A stretch of DNA of 64,000 bases from an uncultured candidate division WWE3 bacterium (GTDB lineage: Bacteria > Patescibacteriota > WWE3 > UBA101185 > UBA10185), in contig CAIRNR010000007.1 in NCBI GenBank assembly GCA_903879985.1, positions 151,665 to 215,664 of the forward strand, written 5' to 3'. Both the position numbers and the translations under genes were made by a program. The number at the start of each line of letters is the position of its first letter. Position 1 is the stretch's first letter. This document shows, piece by piece, positions 3,232 to 49,850 of the stretch. The notes below the pieces were generated by a model. That model was not told the origin of the DNA, did no database searches, and was given only the letters and a program-made list of their open reading frames with translations.

Positions 3232-3867
3232 TTAATAGGCTCCTTTACCTGTTAAAACAACTAATGGCGTCTTAAATATGATCATTAGATCATACAGCAA
3301 AGAACGCTTTTTTGCATACGAGGCATCCAATTTTACTCTAGCGTCAAAAGATAAGCTAGAGCGACCGCTTATTTGCCATAAACCTGTTAAACCTGGCTTT
3401 ACCGAGTAAACAACCTGCATTAAATCTTTTAGGTCTGGGTGGGTTTCAAGCTGTTTATCCACTTCAAATGGATAATAGGCACGGGGTCCAACAAAGCTCA
3501 TTTCACCACGCAAAATATTAAAGAACTGTGGAAGCTCATCAATACTGGATTTACGGATAAACTTTGCGCCTTTAATTAATCTTGGATCAGGGTCAAGTTT
3601 AAAATTATTCTCTTGGTATTTTTTAAGCAACTCAGGCTGACTCATAAGCCATTCGTGAGCATGCGGAATCATTGAACGAAATTTAAAGAATTTGAATGTT
3701 TTACCATCCTTACCTACGCGTAAGGGCGTATCAGCAAGTACTGGTCCGCTTGGAGAAACAAGTTTAATCCAAATGGAGGCACCAAGCATTAAAGGTGCAC
3801 TGAAAACAATGCCACATAGAGAAATCACAATATCCATTATTCGTTTAGAAATATCGTAGAAGCTCAT
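3232..3867 (-). CDS. Polyprenyl-phosphate sugar phosphotransferase (Bac_transf family, small PglC/WbaP C-terminal type). This is the initiating enzyme.
   Basis: Has an N-terminal TM helix. The signature DELPQFFNILRGEMSFVGPRA matches the bacterial sugar transferase motif. Confidence 0.85.
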   Translation of the reverse strand: MSFYDISKRIMDIVISLCGIVFSAPLMLGASIWIKLVSPSGPVLADTPLRVGKDGKTFKFFKFRSMIPHAHEWLMSQPELLKKYQENNFKLDPDPRLIKGAKFIRKSSIDELPQFFNILRGEMSFVGPRAYYPFEVDKQLETHPDLKDLMQVVYSVKPGLTGLWQISGRSSLSFDARVKLDASYAKKRSLLYDLMIIFKTPLVVLTGKGAY

Positions 3868-4997
3868 GTTAAGTCCTTTAAGTATACACTATTAACAAAT
3901 GTGACGAATTTTTCGGTAAAAACTTTACTACTAAATTTAGATGCATGGCGCTGGCATTTTAGTGAATTGTATTTTTCGGGCTCGAAGTTTTTGAGAACTT
4001 GCATAAGGCTACTGGAAGTTTGTTTATCAAAAAATTCACCTGTTTCTCCCGCGATAACAGTTTCTAGGGCACCACCACTGCGGTAAGCGATAACGGGCTT
4101 ACCCAAGGACATTGCCTCAACCGGAACTATTCCAAAATCTTCGCTTTGAGTATTTATGAGTGCTAAACAATTTTCTATTAATCTAGATTTTTCGTGTTCT
4201 GAAACATGCCCCAAAAAAGTTGTATTTTTTCCAGAAATATTTTTAAGTCGTTCAGTATCACTACCCTCACCAACTATAATTAATTTTAGTCCCAATTCTT
4301 CGCAAGCTTGAATCGCGATATCGACATGTTTCCAAGCAACAAGTCGGGTTATTACTAAATAATAAGGCGTACTGGTGGATTGTTCGGCTAAAGCAGCATC
4401 AGATTTTTTAATATCGGCGAAAGGATTTATTAAAACGCTTTCACGGCCATAATACTTGTTGATTCGATTTTTTGTGACAACACTATTGGAAATAAAATGA
4501 TCGACACGTTGCGCGGCACAGTAATCCATAATTCTAATTAAAGACAAAGGTAACTGTAAAAAGAACGCGGCTAAATTTTTTAGAATATAGCTACCGCCAA
4601 AACTTTCATTTTCAAAATAATCTGCGGATTCCCAAAACATACGGCCGGGCGAATGACAATAACAAATATGTAAAGTTGAAGGCTTTGTAACAATAAAATG
4701 TGAATATCTTGAAGACAAACTTATTACTACATCAAACTCAGAAAAATCGAAACTTTCAAAAGCTAATATGTGTAAAAGAAAAACTGAATACACGCGATTA
4801 AGTTTTACAGCAAAAGGGAATTTTTGTAGAAATGACGTATACACATCTACACCGGATTTTTTATATTTTTCCAACCAACGTTTACTGGCAACCGAGGTAT
4901 AAACAGGTGCATCGGGAAAAATCTCGGAAACTAATTTTACAACCTTTTCTGCTCCACCGAACTGAATGAGATCATCACAGACTATTGCCAATTTCAT
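3864..4997 (-). CDS. Glycosyltransferase family 4 (GT-B).
   Basis: N-terminus MKLAIVCDDLIQFGGAEKVV. The C-terminal E-x7-E-like region reads SEDFGIVPVEAMSLGKPVIA. Confidence 0.85.
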   Translation of the reverse strand: MKLAIVCDDLIQFGGAEKVVKLVSEIFPDAPVYTSVASKRWLEKYKKSGVDVYTSFLQKFPFAVKLNRVYSVFLLHILAFESFDFSEFDVVISLSSRYSHFIVTKPSTLHICYCHSPGRMFWESADYFENESFGGSYILKNLAAFFLQLPLSLIRIMDYCAAQRVDHFISNSVVTKNRINKYYGRESVLINPFADIKKSDAALAEQSTSTPYYLVITRLVAWKHVDIAIQACEELGLKLIIVGEGSDTERLKNISGKNTTFLGHVSEHEKSRLIENCLALINTQSEDFGIVPVEAMSLGKPVIAYRSGGALETVIAGETGEFFDKQTSSSLMQVLKNFEPEKYNSLKCQRHASKFSSKVFTEKFVTFVNSVYLKDLT

Positions 4998-5016
4998 AGA
5001 TGATTAAGATTATACT

Positions 5017-6210
5017 ATGCAATTACTACAACGTAGCATCGCGGTAGCTTATACACTAAATAGCCTCTATAATAGACCCATAATGTTAATAGCACTTAAC
5101 GGACAACGTATTTTAATGCAAAACCCAGCAGGACCAGAGAAATATACAATAAATATGTACTCTGCCCTATCCAAAGTTGATACAACCAACAAATACGTGG
5201 TTTATTTTGAAAACGAACCTAGTGCAGAATTCTGGAAAAGTCTATGCAGTAACAACCCAAACTGGGCATATAAAGTACTTCCGAAAAAATACTCCTGGAC
5301 ACAATACTCACTTGGCAAGGAATTATTCAAAAACACACCAGATGTGTTCTTTACCCCAATACACACATTACCTGTAATTAGGCCACTAAAGACAAAGTAT
5401 GTAGTAATGGTTCATGGTTTGGAATATGGCTTTACAAAAAATAATGCTAACTGGTTTCAAAAATTAGTTTTAGGAAAAACCGAATGGTATGTTTGTACAT
5501 TCGCAAACAAACTCATTGTTCCAACACAAGCGACAAAACAAAAGATACTAAAAAAAGGATGGACTGAAGATTCTAAAATTGAAATAGTAAATGAAGGAGT
5601 ATCACCAACTTTTTATAAACGCCCACCTGAAGAAATAAAAACTGTATTAACAAGGTACAACTTACAAAATAATCCTTATCTGATTTTTGTTTCAACAATT
5701 CAACCACGAAAAAACTTGCCAAGAACAATTGAGGCTTTCGCAAAAGCTGTAAAAAGTAATTCCCAGTTAGCATTTGAAAAACTAGTGATTGTTGGTAAAA
5801 AAGGTTGGGAGTTCGAAGAATCATTGGCAGCGCCAAAAAAGTTTGGCATTGAAAACAACGTTATATTTTTAGGTCGCGCTCCCGATGAAGACTTACCTGC
5901 CTTAATTTCAGGTGCACAAGGTTATGTTAATTTTTCACTTGAGGAAGGATTTGGTCTGCCATTATTAGAGTCTTTTGCGTGTGAAACCCCAACAGCAATT
6001 TCCGATATCCCCGCGTTTGTGGAAGTTGGAGAAGATACACCAATTTATGCAAATCCAGAAAATGTTGATCAAATCTCAGCAGCAATTGTACAACTACTGA
6101 ATTACGCACCAAATCCACAAAATGTTTTAAAGGGAAAACAACACTCGCAAAAGTTCACATGGGAAAACACAGCGAGAAAAACTTTGGATGTACTTTTGAA
6201 TCTTAAATAA
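5017..6210 (+). CDS. Glycosyltransferase family 4. The probable true start is the internal Met near 5083 (MLIALNG...).
   Basis: EGFGLPLLESFACETPTAISDIPAFVEVGED motif. It is divergent from the minus-strand GT4 gene. Confidence 0.85.
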   Translation: MQLLQRSIAVAYTLNSLYNRPIMLIALNGQRILMQNPAGPEKYTINMYSALSKVDTTNKYVVYFENEPSAEFWKSLCSNNPNWAYKVLPKKYSWTQYSLGKELFKNTPDVFFTPIHTLPVIRPLKTKYVVMVHGLEYGFTKNNANWFQKLVLGKTEWYVCTFANKLIVPTQATKQKILKKGWTEDSKIEIVNEGVSPTFYKRPPEEIKTVLTRYNLQNNPYLIFVSTIQPRKNLPRTIEAFAKAVKSNSQLAFEKLVIVGKKGWEFEESLAAPKKFGIENNVIFLGRAPDEDLPALISGAQGYVNFSLEEGFGLPLLESFACETPTAISDIPAFVEVGEDTPIYANPENVDQISAAIVQLLNYAPNPQNVLKGKQHSQKFTWENTARKTLDVLLNLK

Positions 6211-12548: not shown

Positions 12549-13754
12549 TTATGCGTTCAATTTTTCAAAAATATAACCTAGCATTGTGTTTACTTTAGTT
12601 CCCCAGTCATTTTGCCTGGCTACTGCCTGACGAGCTGCAACTTTTTCAGCCGAGTTTTCTTCTATAGCATTTCTAATATTATGAGAAAATTCGTTATAAC
12701 TTTTTGAAATGTAGCAAACGCTTGAAAATGGTGTATATGCTGGAAGGTCTGTTACAACAACTGGTATACCTGCTGCAAGTTCCTCGTGGAATTTAACAGG
12801 GAAACAACCACCGACTGTGTAGTCATTAAGTTGATAAGGAATAATCATTACATCAAATCCTGCTAAATAATTTTGCAATACTGAAAAATCTTTTGTACCT
12901 AGGAAATAAATGTTTTTAAAGCCATCTAACCCAAGTTGCTTTAAATCAGCCTCTCTATCTTTAAGAGCCATAGGTCCGATAATTACAAAAGAATAACCTG
13001 GATAATCTCCAGCTATTTTCTTAAATAATTCTCTATCAAACTTATATTCATCAATTGCGCCAGTGAAACCAATTCTAGGCGAAGGAATATTTGCTAAATC
13101 GTCAGGTAGATCTTTAATTAACAACGTGTCTTTAAACTTTTCAAAGTCACCCACGTTTGGCGTGTAATATGTGTTTGAATTATATTTTTTAAGTCGCGTG
13201 ATTAAACCTGGAGCTGTTGAAAAAACAATATTAGCTCTGGTGGCCAACATCTTTTCGGTGCGCACAATTTTATCTTTTTTAGCGGGAGTATCGTATCGTG
13301 GAAAACCTGCGTAATTATCAACACAATCGTAAACCAAGAAATCATGCTTAACATATTTTAAATAATCTTCTAATCCTTCGATTTCTACATGGTAAACCCA
13401 TAAAACTGTTTTGCAGTTTTTGTCGAAAAATTGTGAAGCTAATAAATTTATGTAACGTGCGTGCCATTTTGCTAATTTGTCGCGTGTAGGTAAACAATCT
13501 AACGGAGAATATATGTGCAAACCACTATCTTTCATCACTTGTGTGATTAATCTAAAAAATGACCACTGACCTTTGAACAATTGCCTGAAAAACAATCTTC
13601 CGGTGGTTATTGGTGGATCTACAAACAAAACATTGTAACCCATTTTGGAAAGCCTGCTCATGACATGCTTTTTGTTTGTCCATAAAGGATATGTCCATAT
13701 TTGGTTTGATAGACAAATTACATTAAGTTTTTTTGGATTCGATTCAACGCTCAT
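12549..13754 (-). CDS. GT-B fold glycosyltransferase (GT4-like).
   Basis: Rossmann-like halves and a C-terminal GGCFPVKFHEELAAGIPVVVTD motif. Family assignment is less certain. Confidence 0.65.
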   Translation of the reverse strand: MSVESNPKKLNVICLSNQIWTYPLWTNKKHVMSRLSKMGYNVLFVDPPITTGRLFFRQLFKGQWSFFRLITQVMKDSGLHIYSPLDCLPTRDKLAKWHARYINLLASQFFDKNCKTVLWVYHVEIEGLEDYLKYVKHDFLVYDCVDNYAGFPRYDTPAKKDKIVRTEKMLATRANIVFSTAPGLITRLKKYNSNTYYTPNVGDFEKFKDTLLIKDLPDDLANIPSPRIGFTGAIDEYKFDRELFKKIAGDYPGYSFVIIGPMALKDREADLKQLGLDGFKNIYFLGTKDFSVLQNYLAGFDVMIIPYQLNDYTVGGCFPVKFHEELAAGIPVVVTDLPAYTPFSSVCYISKSYNEFSHNIRNAIEENSAEKVAARQAVARQNDWGTKVNTMLGYIFEKLNA

Positions 13755-13801: not shown

Positions 13802-15169
13802 CTATAAGCAGGTAGGACAAGCTTTACGCAATAAATGTAGTTTAACCAGTATTCGGCGGGCATAAAACACAAACTCACTATCTTTTATTGACCATAACCA
13901 CCCGATATTTGTGTAACCACGGTCGTAAGCGGCATGCCAAATACCATCAAAGTAAACAAGGCCCGTAAGTTCTATTAAAACAGACGTGACTATGCACGTG
14001 AAAAAGATTTTTTTTGTTATTTCGTATAATGGGGAATTTATGTAAGGTATTAGCAAAAGTACCAAATAAGGTATTACATCAGAGCTTAAACGGTAGCCGT
14101 AAGACCAACCACCAAACCAGTATTTCCAAAAACTTATAACAAGAGTATGTAAAACGATAATAATCGTAAACAGGATATTTAGTAAGGATTTAGACTTAAG
14201 TGCTCGCCATGCACCAACAAGGGAAAACACAAATACTGGTGAATAAACTAATATGCCTTTGCTGGGCGAGATCCATACACCAAAGAAACTTACAGGAAAA
14301 GTATCCACCCAGTTTTTAAATAACTGATTGGCATAACCTTGATTTTCAACACTTTTATAAAAGATCCCGTTATAAATAACAAAAAATAAAACATTGAGCA
14401 AAACGCCTATACTAAAAGCCGAATAACTTTTTAATAACTTCTGAGGTTGTTTAAATTCCAACATTCCGATGTAAAGACCTACCAATATAATTGTTAATGC
14501 TGCAGTTGGACGCGAGAGTGCTGCCAAACCAAAGAACAAGCCGCTTAAAAATAAATGTTTATACGAAAAAGATTGCTGTGTATAAAATAATAGAAAATAT
14601 AAACCTAATATTGAAAACAGCTGCAATGCGCCATGCTGCCATAAGGCCTGCGAAATCATTGCGAAGTTAACAGTGCCAAACAAATAAATCCCCGTAAGCA
14701 TTAATGATTTTTTTGAATCAAGCTTAAATATATCTTTAAGAAGTAAATAAAAAAATCCACCGGCAAATGCTAAAATCAGCGAACCCGACAGGTGACCAAG
14801 AATAGCCAAAGTATTCCAGGTAAACGATACGTGCAATAAAACAGGTAAAATATAAACTGGTAAGGCCAACAAAGAAATAATTAATGGAAACGCCGACACA
14901 TAATGAGTATCAACTTTTCTTAAGTAATACGGTGTTAAACCAAGAGATTGATCCATATCAGCAGTATTTGGGTATTCCTTAATCATCATGTTGTAATATT
15001 CATCCAAATAAAGGTTACCGTGTTCTAATATTGAAATTGGAGTAAACAATGCAGGAACAGTATCCTGTGATTGAATTGGCAACGAATTAATTCCCAGTTT
15101 AAACAAAATAAGCCAAGGAACAAAAAATAAAACGGTTGAAATAATTATAATTTGCCAAAATCTTTTCAT
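13802..15169 (-). CDS. Polytopic membrane protein, GT-C-like or polymerase-like (10 or more TM segments).
   Basis: Highly hydrophobic 455-aa protein. The GLAALSRPTAAL segment resembles GT-C/PMT-type loops. Confidence 0.5.
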   Translation of the reverse strand: MKRFWQIIIISTVLFFVPWLILFKLGINSLPIQSQDTVPALFTPISILEHGNLYLDEYYNMMIKEYPNTADMDQSLGLTPYYLRKVDTHYVSAFPLIISLLALPVYILPVLLHVSFTWNTLAILGHLSGSLILAFAGGFFYLLLKDIFKLDSKKSLMLTGIYLFGTVNFAMISQALWQHGALQLFSILGLYFLLFYTQQSFSYKHLFLSGLFFGLAALSRPTAALTIILVGLYIGMLEFKQPQKLLKSYSAFSIGVLLNVLFFVIYNGIFYKSVENQGYANQLFKNWVDTFPVSFFGVWISPSKGILVYSPVFVFSLVGAWRALKSKSLLNILFTIIIVLHTLVISFWKYWFGGWSYGYRLSSDVIPYLVLLLIPYINSPLYEITKKIFFTCIVTSVLIELTGLVYFDGIWHAAYDRGYTNIGWLWSIKDSEFVFYARRILVKLHLLRKACPTCL

Positions 15170-15178
15170 AGGTTAAAA

Positions 15179-16375
15179 CTAACTAGACAAGTGCAAAAGA
15201 ATTGTAACACTATCCTGAATTATAAATTTAGCTACCTGTAAGCGTGCCACAATACCCGCGCGCTTTTTTGAAACTTCCAAATAATAAGTTTGGTACTTGC
15301 CGAAGATGTTGTCCCAATTAAACTGTTGCGCTCTTTCCAAACCTTTTTTCTTCATTTGAGAAAGTAAGTGGGAATCGCCGGTAAGTTTTAATGTTTTTTC
15401 GGCAAGATCAGTTGCGTCTTTTGGCGGTATCAACTCTCCTACGCCTCCCACAATTTCTGGATTTGAAGACACGTTAGTAGTTAGAATTGGTAAGCCACAG
15501 GCCATAGCTTCTAAATAAACCCAACCAAATCCTTCATGCAATGTGGGCAACACAAAAAGATCGGCCAGATTATAATACTTTGGCAATAAATCACCTGTGT
15601 TCGAAATTGAACCAACAAGTTTCACATAATCTTCTAAATTATATTTTCGGATTAAATCGTTTAACAACGCACGTTCAACGCCGTCACCAATAATCAAAAA
15701 CACTATATCCGTAACATGCTTTTGGTTAACAATAATATTTGCTGACTCAATTAAAGTAGATAAATTTTTTCGCGGATCCAAGCGACAAACCGTTAAAATA
15801 ACTTTTTTATTTTCCAGAGCGTATTCATGACGTAAATCTGAAACAGCCCAGCCGGGCTTAAACTTTTGTAAATCGAAACCTTTTGGTATTATCTCGGCAC
15901 TATAACCATGTTTTAAGCATTGCTCATTCATAAACTTAGAAATCTGGATAACTCCATCGGCGCGCTTCCCTTCTACAAGTTCAAAGAATTGATCACCGGC
16001 CATAACCATAACGTAAGGAATTCCAAACAACAGCTTTATAAAGCGTGCGAGGTAAGCTTCCAAAGAAAAATGTACGGAAATTAGGTCAAATCTTTTGTGA
16101 TCCAACAAATACATTTTTAGAAATAGGAAGAAGCACTTTATATTAAACAACAACGCAAAAATAATTCCAAAAGCTGAATAACTGTAATAACTTTTTGGGG
16201 CTGACACAAAACGCAAATCAACTTTATCTTTTACAAAATCCAGCTTATCGCCAACAGTCGTAATTACTGTAACTTCGTCGCCATGTATAGAAAACTGGGA
16301 TATTAATTCTTTTATGTGAGTTTCGTTTCCACCCTCGTTATAGCCAACCCAACGATTTATAAAAAGTATTTTCAT
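15179..16375 (-). CDS. Glycosyltransferase family 4.
   Basis: MKILFINRWVGYNEGGNETH N-terminus and an EGFGWVYLEAMACGLPILTTNVSSNPEIVG motif. Confidence 0.85.
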   Translation of the reverse strand: MKILFINRWVGYNEGGNETHIKELISQFSIHGDEVTVITTVGDKLDFVKDKVDLRFVSAPKSYYSYSAFGIIFALLFNIKCFFLFLKMYLLDHKRFDLISVHFSLEAYLARFIKLLFGIPYVMVMAGDQFFELVEGKRADGVIQISKFMNEQCLKHGYSAEIIPKGFDLQKFKPGWAVSDLRHEYALENKKVILTVCRLDPRKNLSTLIESANIIVNQKHVTDIVFLIIGDGVERALLNDLIRKYNLEDYVKLVGSISNTGDLLPKYYNLADLFVLPTLHEGFGWVYLEAMACGLPILTTNVSSNPEIVGGVGELIPPKDATDLAEKTLKLTGDSHLLSQMKKKGLERAQQFNWDNIFGKYQTYYLEVSKKRAGIVARLQVAKFIIQDSVTILLHLSS

Positions 16376-17124
16376 TTTTCAGTTTTAGCAACTACATGAA
16401 AAACATCAGGTGCATTTAAATATGTTTCTTTGGTAATTTTGTTTTGGCGCAAATCCGCAAATTCATAACCTGCGTTATTTAACAAATCGTAAATTTCCGG
16501 CCAGATTTTAGAGCTATGCACCTCAATTAAAAATTTCGGATGATCTTTTGCAATAATTTCTTTGGCACCAATTAGCAATTTATATTCGTAACCTTCAACG
16601 TCAACTTTTATGAAATCAACTTTGGAAAGGTGGTTCTCGTTAACAACGGTATCCAATGTTTTAACATGAAAAATAGTCTCATTTTTTTTAGAATAATTTA
16701 CAAAACCTGAGTCCATAAAGTTAGCCATATTGGAATCGTCAAATGTATGCGCGGTTGCCTCCGAGTTTGAATCACCCAAGGCATATGCACCAGTCTTAAT
16801 ATTCTCAAAACCATTAGCCTTTGCGCTATTATCAACACAAACACAGTTAGGGTCAATTGCTAAAACAAATCCTCCTTTACCGACAATCTTTCTTAATACT
16901 AAAGCGATGTAACCAATATGGCATCCGGCATCAATACAAACGTCGTCAGCGTTAACCACGTGATTAAGTGCGGTAACAACTTCTGGTTCGTATGTACCAA
17001 GAATCTTTTTAATACCGTGCCTTGGTGCCATATAAATGTTCAAACCTTTTAACGTTCCTGACATCACCCTAAATATACGTGGAGCCACAAAGAATTTTCT
17101 AAAAAAGTCATTTAGTATGTTCAT
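16372..17124 (-). CDS. FkbM-family SAM-dependent methyltransferase.
   Basis: VCIDAGCHIGYIALVL...FVLAIDPN matches the FkbM methyltransferase domain pattern. Confidence 0.7.
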   Translation of the reverse strand: MNILNDFFRKFFVAPRIFRVMSGTLKGLNIYMAPRHGIKKILGTYEPEVVTALNHVVNADDVCIDAGCHIGYIALVLRKIVGKGGFVLAIDPNCVCVDNSAKANGFENIKTGAYALGDSNSEATAHTFDDSNMANFMDSGFVNYSKKNETIFHVKTLDTVVNENHLSKVDFIKVDVEGYEYKLLIGAKEIIAKDHPKFLIEVHSSKIWPEIYDLLNNAGYEFADLRQNKITKETYLNAPDVFHVVAKTEK

Positions 17125-18278
17125 AAAGTCATTTCCTTGTAAATTTTTAAATGCATTTTTGCTACGTTATTCCAGCTTCTTCTTTCGGCCTTAGCTCGGG
17201 AGGCATTCTCAAAATTAAGTACCGCATCAGGATTTTTTTCAAGAAAACTAAAAGCCTGATCCCAATTGGCATTATCAACAACATAGCCGTCCAAATTATG
17301 AGTTACTTCTTCATTAAGATTAGGTACATCAGAGGCAACAACGCAACGTCCAAATCCCAGAGCTACAGACATTGGACCACTTGCAGCAATACTTATTTTA
17401 GCAGGAATTAAAAAAACATATGCTTCTGAAAAATATTTTTTAAGAGCATCCTCGTTTAAAAAACCAGTGTACATAACCTGAGAATCTAACCCCAAATTTT
17501 TCACCATATCCTTTACTTCTGAGTACGCAAATTCTTGTCCGGGAATTACTCCCCCGCCTAAGACAAGTTTAATTGGATTTTCCGATTCCTTTAAATACCG
17601 CGCATACCCAGTTAAAACATTTTCTAATCCTTTTCGTTTTGCTAAATATCCAAAGTAAAAAAAGTATTTCTTTTTTTGTTCTAAATCTGCGGGTGTTACA
17701 TTCTCAAAAACATTTACTCCGTGAGGAATAACCTCAATTTTCTTTGCGGAAACGTGGTAATTAGTAATTAGCAAATTTTTTATAAAATTAGTATGAACAA
17801 TAACTTTGTTTGAAAATAACCCAGTGAAGAAATTAATATACAAGAATACTAATTTGAGTAAACCTACAGGTATTTTAGAATCTTCACCTTTAAATGATTT
17901 TACAAAATCAGCATCAATCATTTTTAAGGGAACTCCTGCATGAATGGTTGTAATCACTTTAATTCCAAGCAAACGCGTTAGAAAAACTAACCATGGAAAT
18001 TGCAGAGCAGTTATTCCACCACCAAACATATTTATTTCGTGTTGGTAATGTACAACTGCGGGTCTAATTTTAATTAGCTGTTTTAATATTTGGAAAACAA
18101 ACATTGGGTTTTTGTCCCAAACCAAATTCACTTTGTCAGCAAATTCTAGTTTTTTGTTTTTAGGATCATTATCAGAAAATACTAACAAATCACATCCGTT
18201 TTCTAATAACCCATTGCTCAAAAACTGTGAGTAATTACTGAAAGGTTGTAATGTCGTAACCATAACTACTTTAGACAT
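17121..18278 (-). CDS. Glycosyltransferase family 4.
   Basis: GT-B architecture with a C-terminal ASGPMSVALGFGRCVVASDVPNLNEEV motif. Confidence 0.8.
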   Translation of the reverse strand: MSKVVMVTTLQPFSNYSQFLSNGLLENGCDLLVFSDNDPKNKKLEFADKVNLVWDKNPMFVFQILKQLIKIRPAVVHYQHEINMFGGGITALQFPWLVFLTRLLGIKVITTIHAGVPLKMIDADFVKSFKGEDSKIPVGLLKLVFLYINFFTGLFSNKVIVHTNFIKNLLITNYHVSAKKIEVIPHGVNVFENVTPADLEQKKKYFFYFGYLAKRKGLENVLTGYARYLKESENPIKLVLGGGVIPGQEFAYSEVKDMVKNLGLDSQVMYTGFLNEDALKKYFSEAYVFLIPAKISIAASGPMSVALGFGRCVVASDVPNLNEEVTHNLDGYVVDNANWDQAFSFLEKNPDAVLNFENASRAKAERRSWNNVAKMHLKIYKEMTL

Positions 18279-18343
18279 ATAGTTTGATTATACAAGCTCT
18301 ACGTAGATACTACATAATACTGCAAATGCCGTAACCCTATAGT

Positions 18344-18372
18344 TTGACCATATTTGAAATATAATATATAGT
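18344..18372 (+). promoter_or_regulatory. Sigma70-like promoter for the orphan ORF: -35 TTGACC (18344-18349), 17-nt spacer, -10 TATAGT (18367-18372).
   Basis: Read directly from the sequence. An AAGGAG Shine-Dalgarno lies at 18397-18402, with the ATG at 18411. Confidence 0.35.
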
Positions 18373-18410
18373 ATCCAAAAATCGGAATCTTATAAGAAAG
18401 GAGCAAACGA

Positions 18411-18740
18411 ATGGCTTTCCCAATAACCCCAAACAACAGCGTCAGAAGTATGACAGTTGAAAACGACGGTCCTGACAACGTACTCATCACAGTAAAGTAC
18501 GATAGCCGCTATGGTACAGGTGCAACGGTGTCCAAAGCTAAACTAGAACAGGTTTTGATGTCCAAAAAAGCTGTTATAGAAATTGGCGGGCCAACACTCT
18601 TGCGAATTATCCGCAAAATCGGAGACGGAAGACGCATCCCTACAACACTGTGGTTCTACTTTAAACCAGTAGAAAACAGCTATAACTTATGCGTTATTTG
18701 CGAACAGGATTTGAAAGATGCCCTAAAAGCCTGCAGCTAA
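18411..18740 (+). CDS. Hypothetical 109-aa cytoplasmic protein, an orphan with its own promoter, Shine-Dalgarno and terminator.
   Basis: ATG preceded by AAGGAG. GC is about 44% versus about 33% in the flanks. CVICEQD...KAC cysteines. No recognisable family. Confidence 0.6.
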   Translation: MAFPITPNNSVRSMTVENDGPDNVLITVKYDSRYGTGATVSKAKLEQVLMSKKAVIEIGGPTLLRIIRKIGDGRRIPTTLWFYFKPVENSYNLCVICEQDLKDALKACS

Positions 18741-18751
18741 TACACGCAATG

Positions 18752-18795
18752 ATACGGTATAAAGGATTAATTTCCCGAATACCGTATATTTTTTG
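18752..18795 (+). terminator. Intrinsic terminator-like hairpin (ATACGGTAT / ATACCGTAT, 9-bp stem) followed by ATTTTTTG.
   Basis: The inverted repeat lies 12 nt after the TAA stop of the orphan ORF and is followed by a T-run. Confidence 0.45.
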
Positions 18796-18830
18796 CTTAA
18801 ATTGGCTTTAATAGTATTATCAAAAGAAAT

Positions 18831-20012
18831 ATGAAAATACTTTACCTAATTAACGGACTAGGATTCTCCGATAACACAGGAATAGGTGGCGCAGATAAAC
18901 GCGCAGTAGAAATCGCACGACAATCAAACCAATTTAGCGTTTTAACCACTGCATCTGGATATAACTTATTTAAAAATAACGAAGGATTGGACACAACCTA
19001 TTACACAATAAACCAACCAAGCTTTTGGCCTAAGGGAATAAATAAAAATCTGATAGGGCGTATGCTTTCCTATATTTACGCAACTTTTGCATCACTTACA
19101 TATGCAAGTAAAGTAAAAAATTACGACATGTATTTTCCAAGCTCTGATTTTTTCTTTGACGTAATACCCGCTTATTTTTTTAAACTTGCTAATCACAAAA
19201 AGCTGGTTTGTGTGATTCATCATCATATTCAAAATCCATTTAAACGAAAAGGACCCTTGTTGGTTAATATGCTTCTTTTTTTACTGCAACAGCTTAGTAT
19301 TATTTTTTTAAAAGTCACAGCGGAAGCAATATTCTTATACGACACTCCAGAAGGACACTACATTGCTGAAAACTTGCTGAAAAGTTACAAAGGCAAAATA
19401 TTTTTTATGAAAAACGGCATAAGTGTTGAAGCAATTGATAGTGTTCCCACTCAAGAAAAGATTTACGATGCGTGTTTTGTCGGAGGAATAAGACCAAGCA
19501 AAGGTATCGCAGATTTTGTAAAGATTTGGAAAAGTGTAACCGCAGAGATTCCTAAAGCAAAATTTGCCGTTATAGGCGGTGGAAGTGAAGAAAATGTAAA
19601 CAAGCTTAAAGAGGAAATTTATCAGGCGGGACTGCAAGAAAATATTATTTTATTTGGACCACTTAGCGGAAGTGCTGTTTACAAAATTCTAAAGCAAAGC
19701 AAAGTTTTCATGTCCCCAAGTTACGAAGAAGGTTGGGGAATTGCCGTATGCGAAGCGATGTATTGCGAGCTACCGATTGTTTGTTATGATCTTCCCGCAT
19801 ACAAGGTGTTTGGCACGGGTTTGAAAAAGGTTGAGGTTGGAAATTACGAAGAGTTCGCTAAGAATATTCTGGCGTTGTTAAAAGATCCAAAGATGTCTTC
19901 AGAGATTGGCATCCAACTAAAAAATATAGCTGGAAATTTTACTTGGAAAAATATTGCAAAGGAGGATAGTGAATTCCTAAGTCAAATACTACAGGGTACT
20001 ATAATAGTATAA
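18831..20012 (+). CDS. Glycosyltransferase family 4.
   Basis: EGWGIAVCEAMYCELPIVCYDLPAYKVFG motif. Confidence 0.85.
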   Translation: MKILYLINGLGFSDNTGIGGADKRAVEIARQSNQFSVLTTASGYNLFKNNEGLDTTYYTINQPSFWPKGINKNLIGRMLSYIYATFASLTYASKVKNYDMYFPSSDFFFDVIPAYFFKLANHKKLVCVIHHHIQNPFKRKGPLLVNMLLFLLQQLSIIFLKVTAEAIFLYDTPEGHYIAENLLKSYKGKIFFMKNGISVEAIDSVPTQEKIYDACFVGGIRPSKGIADFVKIWKSVTAEIPKAKFAVIGGGSEENVNKLKEEIYQAGLQENIILFGPLSGSAVYKILKQSKVFMSPSYEEGWGIAVCEAMYCELPIVCYDLPAYKVFGTGLKKVEVGNYEEFAKNILALLKDPKMSSEIGIQLKNIAGNFTWKNIAKEDSEFLSQILQGTIIV

Positions 20013-20958
20013 AACCTTCAAAAAAGCCCGAAATACCACGTAATTGGCTTAAATCACGTAATCTAAGCGCACTATAAACCCAGTATAGGTTCAATACCTT
20101 TATGTTAATAATTGCCCCGATCCAACCGCGTAAACTCTTTGGACGCACGTCTTTTCGATAAAACATGCCTGTATCCTTTCCAATAAAATAAGCATTTCTA
20201 GAAGGACCGAGCCTCATAAAATGTTTAGCCGAAACTAAAGGACTAAAAATAATTTTAAACCCTGCAGCTTTTACCCTTATAAATAAATCTCCGTCGGCGT
20301 GATTAAAATTAAATCTTTCATCAAACCCGCCGATTTTTTCTATGATACTTCGGCGTGTGCCCATACTTGTTGTTGTAGCCAAATCTATCTCTTGTCTATC
20401 AAAGTTAACTGCTTCTGGCAACGCTGTCCCCAAACTATATGCGCCGCTCTCAAAAAAATATCCTGGTTTCAAAATATTTCCTTCGGCAACTATATTTAAA
20501 TATGGCCAAGCAATAATTTTCATTACCAAGTTCTTTTGACTGGCCAAATACAATCGATGCATTTCACCAACAGGATAACATTGAGACGGAAGTGGCCCGG
20601 TTATAACTCCAATCTTTTCATCTCCATTAAGTTCTGCCACAATTCCTTCAAGCCAAGTTTTATCGGCTTCGGCGTCATCAGCTAAATAACCAAGTAGTTC
20701 TGTGTCAGCATTTTTCCACCCCAAATTAAAAAGATAAGATAATCTTTTTTTAGGATCGCAAATTACGCGCAAATTGTCATCAGGATATTCGGAAACAATA
20801 TCTTTAATTTTGGAATCGTCTGCAAAGTTTTCGATAATTAGAATTTTAAAATCTTTGTAATTTTGGTTAGTAATTGAGTTTAAAGCTCTTTCCAGATCTT
20901 CTCTTCGACCATTACGTGGATATGTATTAATGATTACTGTAACGGTTTTTTCTTGCAT
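19999..20958 (-). CDS. Glycosyltransferase family 2.
   Basis: VTVIINTYPRNG...DD GT-A N-terminal pattern with DxD-like motifs. Confidence 0.8.
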   Translation of the reverse strand: MQEKTVTVIINTYPRNGRREDLERALNSITNQNYKDFKILIIENFADDSKIKDIVSEYPDDNLRVICDPKKRLSYLFNLGWKNADTELLGYLADDAEADKTWLEGIVAELNGDEKIGVITGPLPSQCYPVGEMHRLYLASQKNLVMKIIAWPYLNIVAEGNILKPGYFFESGAYSLGTALPEAVNFDRQEIDLATTTSMGTRRSIIEKIGGFDERFNFNHADGDLFIRVKAAGFKIIFSPLVSAKHFMRLGPSRNAYFIGKDTGMFYRKDVRPKSLRGWIGAIINIKVLNLYWVYSALRLRDLSQLRGISGFFEGFILL

Positions 20959-21611
20959 TTCATTATTATAGTAGCACCAAGCTCAGGAAACAGCGATGCG
21001 AGTGAAGTAAAACTAAGGCGTCCGGCATTATCAAAATTAATAACGTCCGATGTATATTCTTCAACATAAAAACCATTTTTTTCTAACAAACCTTTTAACG
21101 AAGATTCTACAAAATATCTCAAATGGCCGGCAGCTTTTTCGTCATAAGAAACTTCGGTTAAAGGATTTAAACCCGCCAACAAAAGTATGCGTCGTCCAAA
21201 GGAGGCTAAGTTTGGTGTCGTAACTACTAAAAATCCTGTATCCGTTAGCGCGTTATAAATTTTAGTAAGAAGTCCATCGGTATCAATAACATGTTCTATT
21301 AATTCTCCACAAAGTACACAATCAAACTTTTGATCAAATGGAATTTCTTCATGCTCAATATCACAAACTTTTACAGGTAAACCTTTTTGTACGCAAATGT
21401 CCACACAAGTTTTCGACATTTCTACGCCATAAACTTCGTTACCCTTTTGTTTAATTAATAAACTGATGTCTCCTTTAAAACAGCCTAAGTCTAAAACGCT
21501 TTTTCCTGTGCCTATTAATTTTGCTATTTTTTGTATTCGAATATCATTTACATTAACTGATTCTGCAGTGCTGTACCTTTTTTCGTTAAAGTCTTTTATA
21601 TCTGCAAACAT
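20934..21611 (-). CDS. Class I SAM-dependent methyltransferase.
   Basis: VLDLGCFKGDISLL matches motif I (the LDLGCG type). Confidence 0.8.
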   Translation of the reverse strand: MFADIKDFNEKRYSTAESVNVNDIRIQKIAKLIGTGKSVLDLGCFKGDISLLIKQKGNEVYGVEMSKTCVDICVQKGLPVKVCDIEHEEIPFDQKFDCVLCGELIEHVIDTDGLLTKIYNALTDTGFLVVTTPNLASFGRRILLLAGLNPLTEVSYDEKAAGHLRYFVESSLKGLLEKNGFYVEEYTSDVINFDNAGRLSFTSLASLFPELGATIIMKCKKKPLQ

Positions 21612-22060
21612 TAAAGTGTTCCCCTTGTAAATGCAGTTAATGAAAAATTAGTTAATAATCTAAAGGTCATAAAGTATGAAAACGGACCGACGCTGTTTGT
21701 AACTTGATCTAAACATAAATGTAAAAACATTCCTAACGCTAAAGAATAAAAGAAATATTGTTTTTTTGTAACATGCCCAAGCAGAACCAAACCTAATAGC
21801 CATTCCCACGCATGAAAAATAATAAATGCCCTACCCGAAGCTATGTACGATGCTCCTGTGATAAAGCGCATTAGGTTAAAACCAAAACCTGAATTTAAAA
21901 AGTAATCTATTAAATGATCAAGATCTATAAAGAACCCGCCCATTATTACTAAAGCTGCCGACAAGTATTTTTTATACTTTTTATAGCAATACACCGCGCC
22001 AATTATTGCTAACGACATGTGACCTATTTCTGTGAGTATGAAATGTAGCATGTTGTTCAT
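21611..22060 (-). CDS. YdjM/DUF457-like membrane-bound metal-dependent hydrolase.
   Basis: Four TM helices with IDLDHLIDY and HLCLDQ motifs. Confidence 0.5.
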   Translation of the reverse strand: MNNMLHFILTEIGHMSLAIIGAVYCYKKYKKYLSAALVIMGGFFIDLDHLIDYFLNSGFGFNLMRFITGASYIASGRAFIIFHAWEWLLGLVLLGHVTKKQYFFYSLALGMFLHLCLDQVTNSVGPFSYFMTFRLLTNFSLTAFTRGTL

Positions 22061-23694: not shown

Positions 23695-24717
23695 TTACCC
23701 GCCTAAGTATTTGCCGGAAGCGTCGTCAACACTACGTAATTCTAACTTTGGTCTTTTTAATAAACCTAAAATAAAGTTAAAACCATAAGTAGCGTGAATT
23801 AGCACAAATCCCCAAAAAGCTATAAAAAACACAAAAGGTCCGTGTTTAATTTCTTTGTACGCAATCTTTGTAGTTTCATAAGTTACAAACCAAAAATAAA
23901 GCATTATCAAAAAAAGCATCACAAATCTAAAAGGAAAACTGAAGATACATAAAATAGCACCAATGATTCCAACTAAAATAACAAATGACGGAACAAAGTA
24001 AGCGGGAATTCTTGACGTTGCAGGATACGTACGTGCAAATTGCCCGCGTTGTCGCCCATACCTGGAAATTTGCTTTAAAAATGGTAAGTATAAGTCGCGT
24101 CGATGATGATATACAATAATCGAAGGATCATAGATAAAATCTTTTTTCTTAAGTTTAATTAAATCCAAACAAAGTTTTGTATCTTCACCGGGCCAAAACG
24201 CTTCATCAAAACCACCTACTTTAATAAAAGCTTCTTTTTCTACGAACAAATTTACCGACGGATAATCATTAATATTTCTTCTATCCCGAGGAACATGGCG
24301 ATACGTTGTAAAACCACCGGAAAGCCACGACTCTAAAATATCGCCCGAAAGTTTTTCGCGCACACCTGCGTCGGGTGGTGTCATCGCAGGTCCGCCAAGT
24401 GCATATGTACCTGTTTCGTCAAAAACACTTTTCGCATTTTTTAGCCAATTCTTTGCCGGAAATGCATCATCATCTAAAAAGGCTAATATTTGGCCACGCG
24501 CTTTGTTAGCGCCTATATTTCTTTTTTTAGCAGGACCTACAGCGCCACTTTCCAAAAAAGTAACTTCAGGATAAAGATGCATTACCTCGTTGTCCAAAGA
24601 ATCTAAAATTACGATTGTTTCAAATTCCTTAAATGTCTGATTGGCCAAAGCCTTTAATATTTCTTTTAAGTAAGGATTAAATTTTCTAACCGGAATAACA
24701 ACGCTAAATTTTGTCAT
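23695..24717 (-). CDS. Glycosyltransferase family 2 with a C-terminal transmembrane region.
   Basis: FSVVIPVRKFNPYLKEILKALANQTFKEFETIVILD N-terminus and C-terminal hydrophobic helices. Confidence 0.8.
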   Translation of the reverse strand: MTKFSVVIPVRKFNPYLKEILKALANQTFKEFETIVILDSLDNEVMHLYPEVTFLESGAVGPAKKRNIGANKARGQILAFLDDDAFPAKNWLKNAKSVFDETGTYALGGPAMTPPDAGVREKLSGDILESWLSGGFTTYRHVPRDRRNINDYPSVNLFVEKEAFIKVGGFDEAFWPGEDTKLCLDLIKLKKKDFIYDPSIIVYHHRRDLYLPFLKQISRYGRQRGQFARTYPATSRIPAYFVPSFVILVGIIGAILCIFSFPFRFVMLFLIMLYFWFVTYETTKIAYKEIKHGPFVFFIAFWGFVLIHATYGFNFILGLLKRPKLELRSVDDASGKYLGG

Positions 24718-39413: not shown

Positions 39414-40643
39414 TTATATATCTTTCTCCTTGTGGAATACCACATCGGAAATTACCTGATCATACTGTTGAATCATATTTTCTAAAGAAAATTCGTTTAG
39501 AGCTTTTATTCTAGCATTCTCTGCCATTTTTTGCCTTAAAGATTGGTTATTTGCCAGTTCTAACAAGCGTAATTTGAAACTTTCGATATCATCTTGGCGA
39601 ACTACAAAACCTGTTTCGCCATTAATGACAGCATCGGGAACTCCACCTAGGCCAAAAGCAACTATAGGCAAGGAAGCCAACATAGCTTCGACTAAAACCA
39701 TTGGAAAACCTTCAATACGCTTGGTTGGGAAAACAAAAATATCAGGATGAGATAAAACGTAATAACTTACAACCTTTGAATAATCTAATTTACCTTTTAA
39801 AACAAGTTTTTTTGACAACCCTGCAGCTTTAACTTTTTCCTTAAACTCATCCAAATATGTTCCCCCACCAACAGCTATTAATTGAAAATTAGAAAATCTT
39901 TTGTCGCTTAAAATGTCAAATAAATAATCAAGACCTTTTTCCTTTGCAATCTGGCCAACGTATAAAAGTTTTATTTTGCTTTCCTCAAAAAAGTCTTCAT
40001 CACCTTTTTGCTGGTTCTCGGGAATAAGCTGTGTGTTTACACCGTTATGAATTACTTTAATCTTGCGCTCATCCACAAAAGTTTCTTCAATTAAAGATTG
40101 CTTAACAGCATTTGAAACAGCCACCACAAGATTTGAACCGTGAACAAAAGAACGCTGTACCGTAAAGAAATTGAGAATGACGTGCGGTAAATCTATGAAT
40201 ATTTTGATTACATCGGTAACGGAATTAATGCTGTTAACTCTGGTTTGAAATTCACCTGACTTAGTTCCGTGAGATATAGAAATAACAGGAATACCAATAT
40301 CTTTTTTTCTATTTATCACAGAAAGTCCGGAAGAACTTTGACTAATAAACAAATTAAATTTTGATTTAGAATTTTCCTGCGCAAAACTTTGCAACAGCAT
40401 GTTATACCAACTATTCTTTTGCCATTGAGTTATTATTGAAAATTTTGGTTTAATACAGTTAACAAATATGTATCTAACACCGTTTTCTGTAATTTCCGTG
40501 TCTTTTACTTCATTTTTTGGTGAAAAAACAACAACTGTATGACCCTTTTTGACCAGGCCCTCACACAATACCCTATTCTGTGTTTCTAATCCGCCAAACC
40601 CTTTGTGAAAAGTAGTAGCTTTAACGCTAACCGCTATGTTCAT
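39414..40643 (-). CDS. Glycosyltransferase family 4.
   Basis: EGFPMVLVEAMLASLPIVAFGLGGVPDAV motif. Confidence 0.85.
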   Translation of the reverse strand: MNIAVSVKATTFHKGFGGLETQNRVLCEGLVKKGHTVVVFSPKNEVKDTEITENGVRYIFVNCIKPKFSIITQWQKNSWYNMLLQSFAQENSKSKFNLFISQSSSGLSVINRKKDIGIPVISISHGTKSGEFQTRVNSINSVTDVIKIFIDLPHVILNFFTVQRSFVHGSNLVVAVSNAVKQSLIEETFVDERKIKVIHNGVNTQLIPENQQKGDEDFFEESKIKLLYVGQIAKEKGLDYLFDILSDKRFSNFQLIAVGGGTYLDEFKEKVKAAGLSKKLVLKGKLDYSKVVSYYVLSHPDIFVFPTKRIEGFPMVLVEAMLASLPIVAFGLGGVPDAVINGETGFVVRQDDIESFKLRLLELANNQSLRQKMAENARIKALNEFSLENMIQQYDQVISDVVFHKEKDI

Positions 40644-45386: not shown

Positions 45387-46358
45387 TTAAATAATTAATC
45401 CAGGCCTAAGTACAATCCAGATACTTAATATTACCATAATGAATATGGTGATATGCGCTATAGTATGGCCATTAAGCTTAGCAATACCTTTCTTTCGTGT
45501 ATACCAAATATCCAAAAACAATAGTAGTGTTAAAAATCCGGCAAACGATAACGTTACATATCTTGTTGCTGTTGCTACGTCGATAGCTGGCAAAACTGCA
45601 GGTTGTTTAATATTAACAACGGGTGCCGGTGCGCCTTCGGGCTGCGTGGCTTCACCTGTGGATATAGCAGCTTTACTTAACACATTGTCTTCTTCCTCTA
45701 CTGTTGCGACTTGATGAGGATCTCTGGGACGCCCAAACATTTGAACAACTAATGTAGTTTCATAGCCATCCAAAACACCGTTAACAACAGCAAAGCCAAC
45801 CTCGTCATAATTTGGGCTTAGTAAATTTTCCCGATGTGAAGGTGAGTTATACCAAGCAGTTACAACGTCTTGGGAAGTAGAAAAGTTTTTAGCCAAATTT
45901 TCTCCCGCATAAGTATAGTCATAGTTTTGTTTTAAAATAAAATCCCAAGGTTCACTTCCGCTGGGTGAAACGTGCGCCCAATATTGATCTTTAAACATGT
46001 TTGCAGCTTTCTCCTGTGCGGCTTCTGTTAATTTAGCGTTTACGCGTAACGCAGATAATCCTCGATCGGTTCTCATTTTATTTGAATCTACCAACAAATC
46101 TTTCATGTTAATACTTGAGGCATAACCTAAAACTCCTGGGGCAAACTTTGGAAAGAAACGCAAAGAACCAATAGTCAGCATAATCACCAAACAATAAATA
46201 ACTAAAGCTTTGTTTGATAATAAAGTTGCTCGACGTTTATGTTCAGGATGCGGCAAAAAATGGTATATAAATTGAAACTTATCAATTGATTTCGGGTTTT
46301 TACGCCAATACTTTACTATCGACGGATTTTGTTCTTTTGTTTTGGACAGGAGGGCCAT
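45387..46358 (-). CDS. Membrane-anchored CAP (SCP/PR-1, YkwD-like) domain protein.
   Basis: YAGENLAKNF...VVTAWYNSPSHRENLLSPNYDEVGFAV matches CAP-domain motifs. It has N-terminal and C-terminal TM helices. Confidence 0.7.
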   Translation of the reverse strand: MALLSKTKEQNPSIVKYWRKNPKSIDKFQFIYHFLPHPEHKRRATLLSNKALVIYCLVIMLTIGSLRFFPKFAPGVLGYASSINMKDLLVDSNKMRTDRGLSALRVNAKLTEAAQEKAANMFKDQYWAHVSPSGSEPWDFILKQNYDYTYAGENLAKNFSTSQDVVTAWYNSPSHRENLLSPNYDEVGFAVVNGVLDGYETTLVVQMFGRPRDPHQVATVEEEDNVLSKAAISTGEATQPEGAPAPVVNIKQPAVLPAIDVATATRYVTLSFAGFLTLLLFLDIWYTRKKGIAKLNGHTIAHITIFIMVILSIWIVLRPGLII

Positions 46359-47010: not shown

Positions 47011-47277
47011 TTAAAGTCCTGGAATACCTAAGTCGCCTAATTGGCCTCTCATTTGTTTTTCGACTTTTTTGTCTACTTCTTTGTTAGCATCATTTATTAA
47101 TTCTCTCAAATCTTTGCGATCTTCGCCGTCGATTTCAAGCTTTTCAATATGCTTGTCGCCTCTTATGACAACACGCACGCCTGCTTTTGATTGTGTTACA
47201 AATATTTGAACCAACTGTTTTTTGATTTCGCTTTGTGTTTTTCTTAAGTTGTTTAAATCTTTAAATTTTTCAAACAT
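47011..47277 (-). CDS. ybaB: YbaB/EbfC-family nucleoid-associated protein.
   Basis: 88 aa. AGVRVVIRGDKHIEKLEID...DLRELINDANKE...GDLGIPGL follows the YbaB pattern, including the C-terminal G-x-PGL. Confidence 0.7.
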   Translation of the reverse strand: MFEKFKDLNNLRKTQSEIKKQLVQIFVTQSKAGVRVVIRGDKHIEKLEIDGEDRKDLRELINDANKEVDKKVEKQMRGQLGDLGIPGL

Positions 47278-47279
47278 AG

Positions 47280-48536: not shown

Positions 48537-48591
48537 TTAATGCACCGCTTCCACGAAAGCGCCGTGATATATACTACATATTCAACAAGGC

Positions 48592-49032
48592 TTATTCAAG
48601 AGTGGAACCGGACTTTTCAACGATTTCTTTTGAAGCTACTGAATACGAAAAACCTACTAATGTTAACTTCTTCTCTAGTTTACCATCTGCCAAAATCTTA
48701 ACGCCATACTTTGGTGCGCGTTTAATAATATTTTTCTTAATTAAATCAGCAATTGTAACTGTTGAACCTTCTTTGAATACATTTAAAGCATTCAAACTGA
48801 TTGTGAAAATATCTTTTTTAGTAGGATTGTTAAAACCACCCAATTGTGGAAGTCTTTTGTACAAAGGTACTTGTCCACCTTCAAAACCCATTTTTATTTT
48901 ATGGCCTTTTCTAGCTTTTTGACCTTTAGCACCACTACCAACGGTATGACCACCTTTACCACTACCAATTCCGCGGCCAATTATCATTTTCTTTTTTATG
49001 TTTTTTACTACGATTAAGTTAGATAGATCCAT
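48592..49032 (-). CDS. rplO: 50S ribosomal protein L15.
   Basis: Gly/Lys-rich N-terminus GRGIGSGKGGHTVGSGAKGQKARKG. Position in the spc order. Confidence 0.9.
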   Translation of the reverse strand: MDLSNLIVVKNIKKKMIIGRGIGSGKGGHTVGSGAKGQKARKGHKIKMGFEGGQVPLYKRLPQLGGFNNPTKKDIFTISLNALNVFKEGSTVTIADLIKKNIIKRAPKYGVKILADGKLEKKLTLVGFSYSVASKEIVEKSGSTLE

Positions 49033-49044
49033 ATTTTTCCTTTA

Positions 49045-49497: not shown

Positions 49498-49850
49498 AAA
49501 GTAATTCCTCCCTCTCTAACACCTTCTGCTAAGCGCTGAACTCTTCCTGCGTATTGATAACCATTTCTATCGAAAACAGCTAATTTAATTTTTGCTTCTT
49601 TTGCTCTTTCAGCTAATAATTTTCCTGTTTCAAAAGCAGCATCCTTTTTAGCTTTGCCTTCTAATTCTTTACTATCAGAAGAAGCTGCGGCTAAAGTTTT
49701 ACCGGTAACATCATCAATTAATTGGCAATAAATATATTTGTTAGATCTGAAAACAGAAAGTCTTGGTTTTTCGACTGTTCCAGTAATGTTCTTTCGAACT
49801 CTTAGTTTTCGTTTTTCTAATCTTGTTTTTCTTAGCATTACTTTATACAT
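49494..49850 (-). CDS. rplR: 50S ribosomal protein L18.
   Basis: Sequence and operon position. Confidence 0.9.

Follow-up and report, generated by a model that had tools for sequence, protein, structure and literature searches.

What is a 109-amino-acid open reading frame (ORF) without recognisable relatives doing in by far the longest gap of a bacterial surface-glycan cluster, and how did it come to be there? The ORF (18411..18740, + strand, ATG start) lies in a 64,000-nucleotide stretch of contig CAIRNR010000007.1, hereafter the window, from an uncultured candidate division WWE3 bacterium. It is the only ORF in a 552-nt spacer between the starts of two divergent genes for GT4 glycosyltransferases. 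One of these, here GT4-385 (385 amino acids; 17121..18278, − strand; start codon the complement of 18276-18278), is transcribed away from the ORF, while the other, GT4-393 (393 amino acids; 18831..20012, + strand), lies downstream of it in the same orientation. It is argued below that the ORF, referred to as the orphan, is very probably a genuine protein-coding gene, and that a real gene of horizontal origin is the likely explanation for its presence.

The host itself can be placed from the window. The best non-self matches of its elongation factor G (EF-G) are 82-87% identical and many are named WWE3, and the best matches of GT4-393 likewise come from Patescibacteria; by these sequence matches the host is a candidate division WWE3 (Patescibacteria) bacterium. 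The earlier, sequence-only reading of this DNA described the orphan as the only plus-strand gene besides two GT4 genes, and this holds for ORFs of at least 100 amino acids that are not nested in a larger gene, of which the + strand has only three (5017..6210, 18411..18740 and 18831..20012).

A predicted self-contained transcription unit

The same reading proposed a standalone transcription unit with a promoter, an AAGGAG Shine-Dalgarno (SD) sequence and a 9-bp terminator, and every one of these elements was recovered. The predicted sigma-70-like promoter (18344..18372, + strand; 10/12 match) consists of a −35 hexamer TTGACC (18344-18349) and a −10 hexamer TATAGT (18367-18372) separated by a 17-nt spacer, and is the best promoter match within 17500-19500. 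With transcription predicted to begin at about 18379-18381, the leader would be about 31 nt long. Taken alone, the promoter match is only suggestive. Across both strands of the whole 64 kb, 16 sites matching at 10 or more of the 12 positions are observed, versus 37 +/- 6 in Markov simulations, and among the seven such sites on the + strand only that of the orphan is intergenic and closely followed by an ORF in the same orientation.

The SD sequence AAGGAG (18398..18403, + strand) is located 7 nt before the orphan ATG. An SD core (GGAG, AGGA or GAGG) within 20 nt of the start is present in 20 of the 60 genes of the window and missing from the other 40, and a complete AAGGAG suitably spaced from the start occurs elsewhere in the window mainly at ribosomal-protein genes. 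At the other end, the stem of a predicted intrinsic terminator (18752..18794, + strand) begins 11 nt past the TAA stop codon. It is made up of a 9-bp stem (ATACGGTAT/ATACCGTAT) whose arms, 18752-18760 and 18779-18787, are complementary at 9/9 positions, an inner 3-bp stem, an A and a run of six T residues (18789-18794), and is unidirectional, serving the + strand. The 81-nt hairpin segment folds at -23.4 kcal/mol (z = -4.9), and none of 200 shuffled sequences was as stable. The structure thus has the stable stem-loop, the U-run and the position just past a stop codon that characterise a Rho-independent terminator; a simple terminator scan overlooked it because its nominal loop is 18 nt long.

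Random 552-nt sequences of the same composition contain an ORF of 109 codons or more in about 1% of cases. A chance origin is made very unlikely by the co-occurrence of the ORF, SD sequence, promoter and terminator in the correct order. A single gene is thus enclosed by its own predicted promoter and terminator, and the best reading of the spacer is that of an autonomous monocistronic transcription unit, predicted to run from the promoter through a leader of about 31 nt, a strong SD sequence and 109 codons to the terminator.

Coding signal and base composition

A codon log-odds model was trained on the 59 other genes of the window. In its own frame the orphan scores +0.185 bits per codon (the mean for 109-codon windows of true genes is 0.32), the remaining five frames score between -0.32 and -1.0, and the in-frame value is matched by none of 766 wrong-frame windows. 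Because this wrong-frame null contains stop codons, the comparison was repeated with a model restricted to sense codons, in which the orphan scores 0.081 versus -0.205 +/- 0.087 for composition-matched random sequence without stop codons (p = 2.5e-4). Gene callers picked the ORF up in every assembly that carries it; one pipeline calls a 96-amino-acid version beginning at Met14, and the position of the SD sequence supports Met1 as the start. Since the frame fits host codon usage, and since an empty 552-nt spacer would be the longest gap of the cluster by far (its other intergenic gaps are all 47 nt or less), 18411..18740 is very probably a real gene. An antisense ORF of 63 amino acids (18299..18490) was considered and rejected, having negative codon scores and no SD sequence, and a scan of the window detected no paralogue or partial copy of the orphan.

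The GC content of about 44% reported for the ORF is borne out, and is exceptional for this DNA. At 0.436 the orphan has the highest GC content of the 60 genes (the other 59 have 0.357 +/- 0.020, with a maximum of 0.402), and at 0.455 it has the highest GC content at third codon positions (GC3; 0.272 +/- 0.049 for the other 59, with a maximum of 0.386), a value 3.7 standard deviations above the genes of the window. Only 0.24% of 330-nt windows reach a GC content of 0.436. The rise is confined to the ORF: the 132 nt upstream have 30.3% GC and the 90 nt downstream 27.8%, and the neighbouring genes have 0.330 and 0.358. A high GC3 is not a signature of high expression in this host, because its ribosomal-protein genes have the lowest GC3 of the window (0.13-0.26). 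For the orthologous rpo/ribosomal region, the nearest sampled relative has 39.3% GC versus 37.1% in the window. The composition of the orphan, GC3 above all, points to a foreign origin.

Homology searches and distribution

The claim that the protein belongs to no recognisable family withstood every search made here. A word-indexed search of 5.8 billion protein clusters returned only the orphan itself. This kind of search can miss identical entries, so the claim that only the query itself is found rests instead on an exhaustive phmmer scan of 1.84 billion representatives; the protein of GT4-393, for example, is missing from its own word-indexed list of homologues (top match 55%), although it is present in the contig index. 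The phmmer scan gave the orphan itself and four further matches with E values of 4e-5 to 2e-4, which were rejected, and at this database size homologues scoring below about 40 bits may escape it. The four are a seven-CARDB protein, a protein with a 64-amino-acid repeat of no family and two eukaryotic proteins with multiple BED fingers. They come from unrelated families, align to differing regions of the query and reach their E values by adding up 5-12 weak matches; they are artefacts of summed repeats. The BED zinc finger in particular reaches an E value of about 1e-4 only by summing five to seven weak repeat matches over residues 64-104. Despite a WFYF...CxxC likeness, identity with this domain fails at its CCHH/CCHC ligands, because the orphan has no histidine and three cysteines, and Pfam zf-BED does not match it.

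Profile and structure databases were similarly silent. Pfam hmmscan at E <= 1 gave only sub-threshold matches to DUF6974 and DUF2653. The former (PF22388) was rejected at 16.4 bits versus a gathering threshold of 26 (E = 0.01; residues 34-108 against profile positions 6-73 of 104), and a literature search found nothing published on it. NCBIfam and PADLOC gave no match, PHROGs only the sub-threshold phrog_29865 (E = 0.071) and a sequence search of the PDB only DUF4468 (E = 0.2). Phage and plasmid records yielded short chance-level matches (E = 2 and 9), and no relative was detected in IMG/VR viral contigs or JGI metagenome contigs. The product is a strict orphan on the evidence of these searches, and no match suggests that the ORF is a fragment of a larger gene, a case that the sequence-only reading had allowed for.

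The exact 109-amino-acid protein, with its ORF intact and identical, is on record in 34 index blocks from NCBI, JGI, ENA and Logan. These represent at least 23 contigs from many samples, the longest of them 715 kb. The DNA of seven same-species loci (L001-L005, L009 and L010) is 99.5-100% identical to the window. All of these carriers belong to one species-level population, sampled mostly from stratified freshwater-lake metagenomes. The host lineage is reasonably well sampled, and many WWE3 genomes have an EF-G 82-87% identical to that of the window; the orphan is in none of them. It therefore has the distribution of a taxonomically restricted gene, with no homologue found outside a narrow lineage. 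A search of JGI contigs for empty-site alleles, using an exact 26-mer from the start of GT4-385, gave no match.

Variation among the same-species strains is clustered: an FkbM-type methyltransferase gene differs by an in-frame indel of 9 nt at 16848 (250 vs 253 amino acids), and there are two dense tracts of single-nucleotide polymorphisms, 13 in 105 nt at 16108-16212 (L005) and 10 in 220 nt at 24109-24328 (L001 and L002). Set in otherwise identical DNA, these look like recombination tracts.

Orthologous loci and a possible route of insertion

The sequence-only reading had proposed looking for the gene at the same position in related genomes, and it is conserved there in none, an absence which that reading, if joined to a lack of expression, would have counted against the gene. 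Orthologues of GT4-393 are 50-55% identical, and six of their loci were compared (L011-L016); tblastn with the orphan was negative in all six. In four of these, L013 (WWE3 RBG_19FT_COMBO_34_6), L014, L015 and L016, the orthologue stands alone on the opposite strand and converges with the gene downstream, and the divergent spacer on its upstream side is 60, 98, 133 and 112 nt long, respectively, and contains no ORF. The spacers in relatives have 15-34% GC. In the other two loci, L011 and L012, the orthologue is directly adjoined by a co-directional gene, either sulfotransferase-like or GT4. A genome scan of GTDB with GT4-385 returned only relatives of 35% and 24% identity in unrelated taxa, and was uninformative for synteny. 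The orphan is thus absent from the same position in these syntenic relatives, and its unit of about 420 nt is best read as having been inserted into a divergent spacer that was ancestrally about 60-130 nt long. That a genuine protein-coding gene was inserted into this ancestral spacer is judged probable.

GT4-393 appears to have been left with its own expression signals. A −10-like box, TAGTATTAT (18813..18820, + strand), lies 10 nt before its ATG, which has no SD sequence, and a box of the form (G/A)ATAGTAT at this place is common to the window, L014 and L015. Because the box is conserved in orthologous loci, GT4-393 would keep its own promoter, downstream of the orphan terminator. The lone opposite orientation of GT4-393 recurs despite the identity of only 50-55%. 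Its 3' end overlaps a convergent GT2 gene by 14 nt (19999-20012), and a convergent 3' overlap of 11-17 nt recurs at 3586-3602 in L011, 3822-3832 in L013 and 5193-5206 in L016.

The upstream side of the spacer carries what may be a trace of the event. A segment comprising the first codons of GT4-385 and its −10 box (copy A, 18250..18292; TATAAT on the − strand at 18287-18292, 8 nt before the ATG) is repeated at 18325..18352 (copy B). Copy B is identical to copy A at 24 of 28 positions and is missing exactly the 15 nt coding for MSKVV in GT4-385. A collinear match in two blocks of this kind was produced by none of 300 Markov simulations of the region, and at zero mismatches both duplicated motifs occur in the window only at these two sites. 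The orphan −35 hexamer falls inside copy B, where TTGACC stands for the TTGATT of copy A. The duplication fits promoter capture by local copying. Terminal inverted repeats around the ORF (I2 and I3) were also considered and rejected as not collinear and at the level expected by chance in AT-rich DNA.

On the favoured reading, a foreign, moron-like unit of about 420 nt was inserted into the short divergent spacer between two GT4 genes, and the −35 element of the orphan appears to derive from a duplicate of the promoter and start of GT4-385. The reconstruction of this insertion and of the promoter-duplication trace is the clearest addition made by the present analysis. If real, it would represent a clean, well-delimited gene gain in a streamlined Patescibacteria genome, in which the insertion site, the empty ancestral spacer and the partly duplicated promoter are all visible. 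Among the candidate roles put forward by the sequence-only reading, that of a horizontally acquired gene is the one that gained ground, given the GC3 excess and the absence of the gene from all six orthologous loci and every database searched.

Function and alternative explanations

The orphan product is a basic protein of 109 amino acids and 12.1 kDa (pI 9.07; grand average of hydropathy -0.12), with cysteines at positions 94, 97 and 108, near the C-terminus. No signal peptide, transmembrane segment or repeat was detected in it. An internal duplication suggested by a 13-nt DNA repeat (D3), 156 nt apart and in frame, was rejected when only 4 of 34 residues matched. The tryptic peptides AVIEIGGPTLLR, YDSR/YGTGATVSK and IPTTLWFYFKPVENSYNLCVICEQDLK are expected from it. 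As the orphan has no homologues, AlphaFold2 was run without an alignment, and the single-sequence models are of low confidence, with a mean predicted local distance difference test (pLDDT) score of 50.4 for the 109-amino-acid form and 54.6 for the 96-amino-acid form. In both models the elements follow one order, namely three to four strands, a helix, a strand, a helix, a beta-hairpin and a helix. Foldseek found nothing in the PDB below E = 0.25. There is a weak resemblance to the Whirly-like beta-beta-beta-beta-alpha architecture found in single-strand nucleic-acid binders, seen on models with pLDDT of 50-55, for which beta-barrels and a type VI secretion system (T6SS) immunity protein score nearly alike. 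This resemblance is a lead, not a result.

This soluble alpha/beta product may be a nucleic-acid binder, perhaps built on the (beta-beta-beta-beta-alpha)x2 plan of Whirly/PUR-like proteins, and a small nucleic-acid-binding or regulatory protein can be entertained tentatively, as a possibility rather than an expectation. Function is the point on which the proposals made here are most conditional. A possible target would be provided by the 15-bp direct repeats TATAGTTTGA(TT/CC)ATA (also written TATAGTTTGAYYATA) at 18278 and 18338, 60 bp apart, which overlap the GT4-385 −10 box and the orphan −35 hexamer; the product may act locally on these two sites. Their interpretation as paired, putative operator sites is more speculative than that of the duplication as promoter capture.

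The alternative that follows most directly is a dedicated local transcription factor, which would bind the 15-bp repeats, regulate its own gene, control GT4-385 and so link the divergent glycan operons. The gene lies in a divergent promoter region, a classic site for a regulator, the direct repeats overlap both promoters, and the protein is small, basic and weakly similar to Whirly-type nucleic-acid binders. However, family profile searches detected no helix-turn-helix (HTH), ribbon-helix-helix (RHH), AbrB, zinc-ribbon or other DNA-binding domain, the repeats could just as well have arisen incidentally from the duplication, in which part of the GT4-385 coding sequence was copied too, and the orthologous clusters function without the orphan. 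Such a factor is thus unlikely. The regulatory role named in the sequence-only reading is neither strengthened nor removed by the basic pI, the weak Whirly-like fold, the repeats and the missing DNA-binding domain. For a highly expressed small structural protein, also named there, the strong SD sequence is the only argument. The more ambitious version, in which the orphan, captured by a bacterium of the candidate phyla radiation and placed behind a promoter pieced together from a copy of its neighbour's, would found a miniature Whirly/PUR-like family and gate both divergent glycosyltransferase operons through the repeats, as a private glycan switch for an episymbiont lineage, is very doubtful.

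A second alternative is that the ORF is a non-functional passenger, either spurious or a decaying remnant, on foreign or rearranged DNA. The following observations weigh against a real, acquired gene, would favour such a passenger, or do both. There are no homologues at all, and no donor was identified. The orphan's codon score lies in the lower fifth of true-gene windows, at the 17th percentile, and about 10% of stop-free stretches of at least 60 codons in non-gene frames score as high. Its GC content over the three codon positions is nearly flat (0.455/0.40/0.455) and not host-like. The known copies are all near-clonal, with no difference within the ORF among the seven loci where only about 0.5 would be expected, so that selection cannot be gauged from them. 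Promoter-like sites are locally at chance density (7 versus 7.1 in shuffles of the AT-rich 17500-19500 region), chance would place an ORF of this length in roughly 1% of such spacers, and expression is read from sequence signals only. The Whirly-like proposal for the product also suffers, since Pfam Whirly, PurA and all DNA-binding families are silent at E <= 1.

A passenger nevertheless remains quite unlikely. The ORF, the well-spaced AAGGAG, the promoter and the terminator occur together in the right order, and the codon signal is specific to the frame even when judged against a stop-free null of the same composition. The genome is also very compact, as the narrow gaps elsewhere in the cluster show, and there is no similarity to any larger gene of which the ORF could be a remnant. 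As for the gene-like stretches in non-gene frames, the top four (47014-47292, 52300-52572, 54122-54397 and 55246-55545; 91-100 codons, − strand) fall in gaps of the ribosomal-protein operon, within the gene region 47014-55545, and are probably themselves real small genes, presumably for ribosomal proteins, below the 100-amino-acid threshold of the gene list. The ribosomal proteins uL23 and uS19 are present in a relative, L017.

Birth of the gene de novo within WWE3, or divergence there past recognition, would replace import with a local origin. It would account for the strict lineage restriction, for a promoter partly derived from local duplication and for the low confidence of the structure prediction, which is common for young proteins. 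However, the local non-coding DNA has only 28-30% GC versus 43.6% for the ORF, with its GC3 of 45.5%, and the related spacers, of 60-133 nt and 15-34% GC, hold no precursor ORF, which leaves a home-grown gene highly improbable. A structured non-coding RNA gene with an incidental ORF is hardly credible: structured RNAs typically stand out by raised GC where the genome is AT-rich, and the fold z-scores over 18375-18800 are -2.9 (+ strand) and -2.4 (− strand), but much of this is owed to the terminator hairpin, Rfam has no match at gathering thresholds in the whole window or even at E <= 5 in 18100-19000, ARAGORN finds no tRNA or tmRNA, and the strong SD sequence, the ATG and the frame-specific codon signal speak for translation. 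An acquired protein-coding gene thus continues to be the preferred reading.

The surrounding glycan cluster

The cluster into which the orphan would have been inserted occupies 475-45124 of the window. At about 45 kb it is unusually large, it is almost wholly co-directional, and it directly adjoins the rpoC/str/S10/spc ribosomal operons. It encodes a Bac_transf protein, a DUF4012 protein, at least 12 GT4 and several GT2 glycosyltransferases, a 975-amino-acid Wzy_C-PMT fusion, three tandem PMT_2/ArnT-like proteins, two Polysacc_synt flippases, LPG_synthase_TM and DUF2079 proteins, a B12-binding radical SAM protein and three methyltransferases. GT2-319, MT-225, MT_21-250, GT4-398, GT4-385 and the radical SAM gene recur in orthologous loci at 34-68% identity. 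Because these neighbouring genes recur in shuffled order, the cluster is a mosaic. It probably shapes the cell surface that is shown to hosts and phages, and a lineage-specific protein made from its divergent promoter region could matter in that respect.

Two membrane proteins of the cluster have no precomputed Pfam match on record. One is a polytopic protein of 455 amino acids (13802-15169, − strand) and the other a protein of 149 amino acids (21611-22060, − strand), which is called with 135 or 146 amino acids in other assemblies. Only 19 nt (4998-5016) lie between the other + strand GT4 gene, 5017..6210, and its divergent neighbour, 3864..4997; because the gap is so short, the promoters of these two genes must lie inside the coding regions or overlap. 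Many genes of the cluster are without any SD sequence, and several carry a box resembling TATAAT about 0-11 nt ahead of the ATG. Examples are found at 18279-18292 (− strand) and 18813-18830 (+ strand), and upstream of 3864..4997, 12549..13754, 19999..20958, 39414..40643 and 45387..46358. Genes of this kind suggest that leaderless or near-leaderless mRNAs are made in this host.

Comparison with known systems

Several known kinds of element resemble the orphan in part. Phage morons, a concept of Juhala and Hendrix reviewed in PMC3594210, are independent transcription units placed between conserved genes; they stand out clearly as additions when syntenic relatives are compared, have a GC content unlike that of their neighbours and bring their own promoter and terminator. 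The orphan is likewise an addition with respect to syntenic relatives, a single small gene of deviant GC content under its own predicted promoter and terminator. However, it resides in a chromosomal glycan cluster rather than in a phage or prophage, and has no match in PHROGs, phage records or viral contigs. It would thus work like a moron but is none, because it is not in a phage.

The proposed Whirly-type relationship is limited in a different way. Compared with the Whirly, PUR, MRP1-2 and SsgA-like folds, the orphan has no profile match, and its 109 amino acids contrast with about 160 for Whirly domains.

Small locus-specific regulators, UpxY and UpxZ, head the polysaccharide operons of Bacteroides. 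The orphan is similarly a small gene on the 5' side of a glycan-synthesis unit, but it lacks a NusG/KOW or UpxZ-like domain, has its own terminator before the GT4 gene and is absent from orthologous clusters.

The ORFans of hypervariable surface-polysaccharide loci are a further point of comparison. The orphan is like them in being short, confined to one population, atypical in composition and set in a reshuffled mosaic locus. Classical bacterial ORFans are usually AT-richer than their hosts, whereas the orphan is GC-richer than its host and is provided with unusually complete expression signals. Singleton proteins are very common in metagenomic variable glycan loci, and the orphan by itself opens no long-standing question. 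With these likenesses and differences taken together, the orphan fits best among the taxonomically restricted accessory genes of variable surface-glycan loci.

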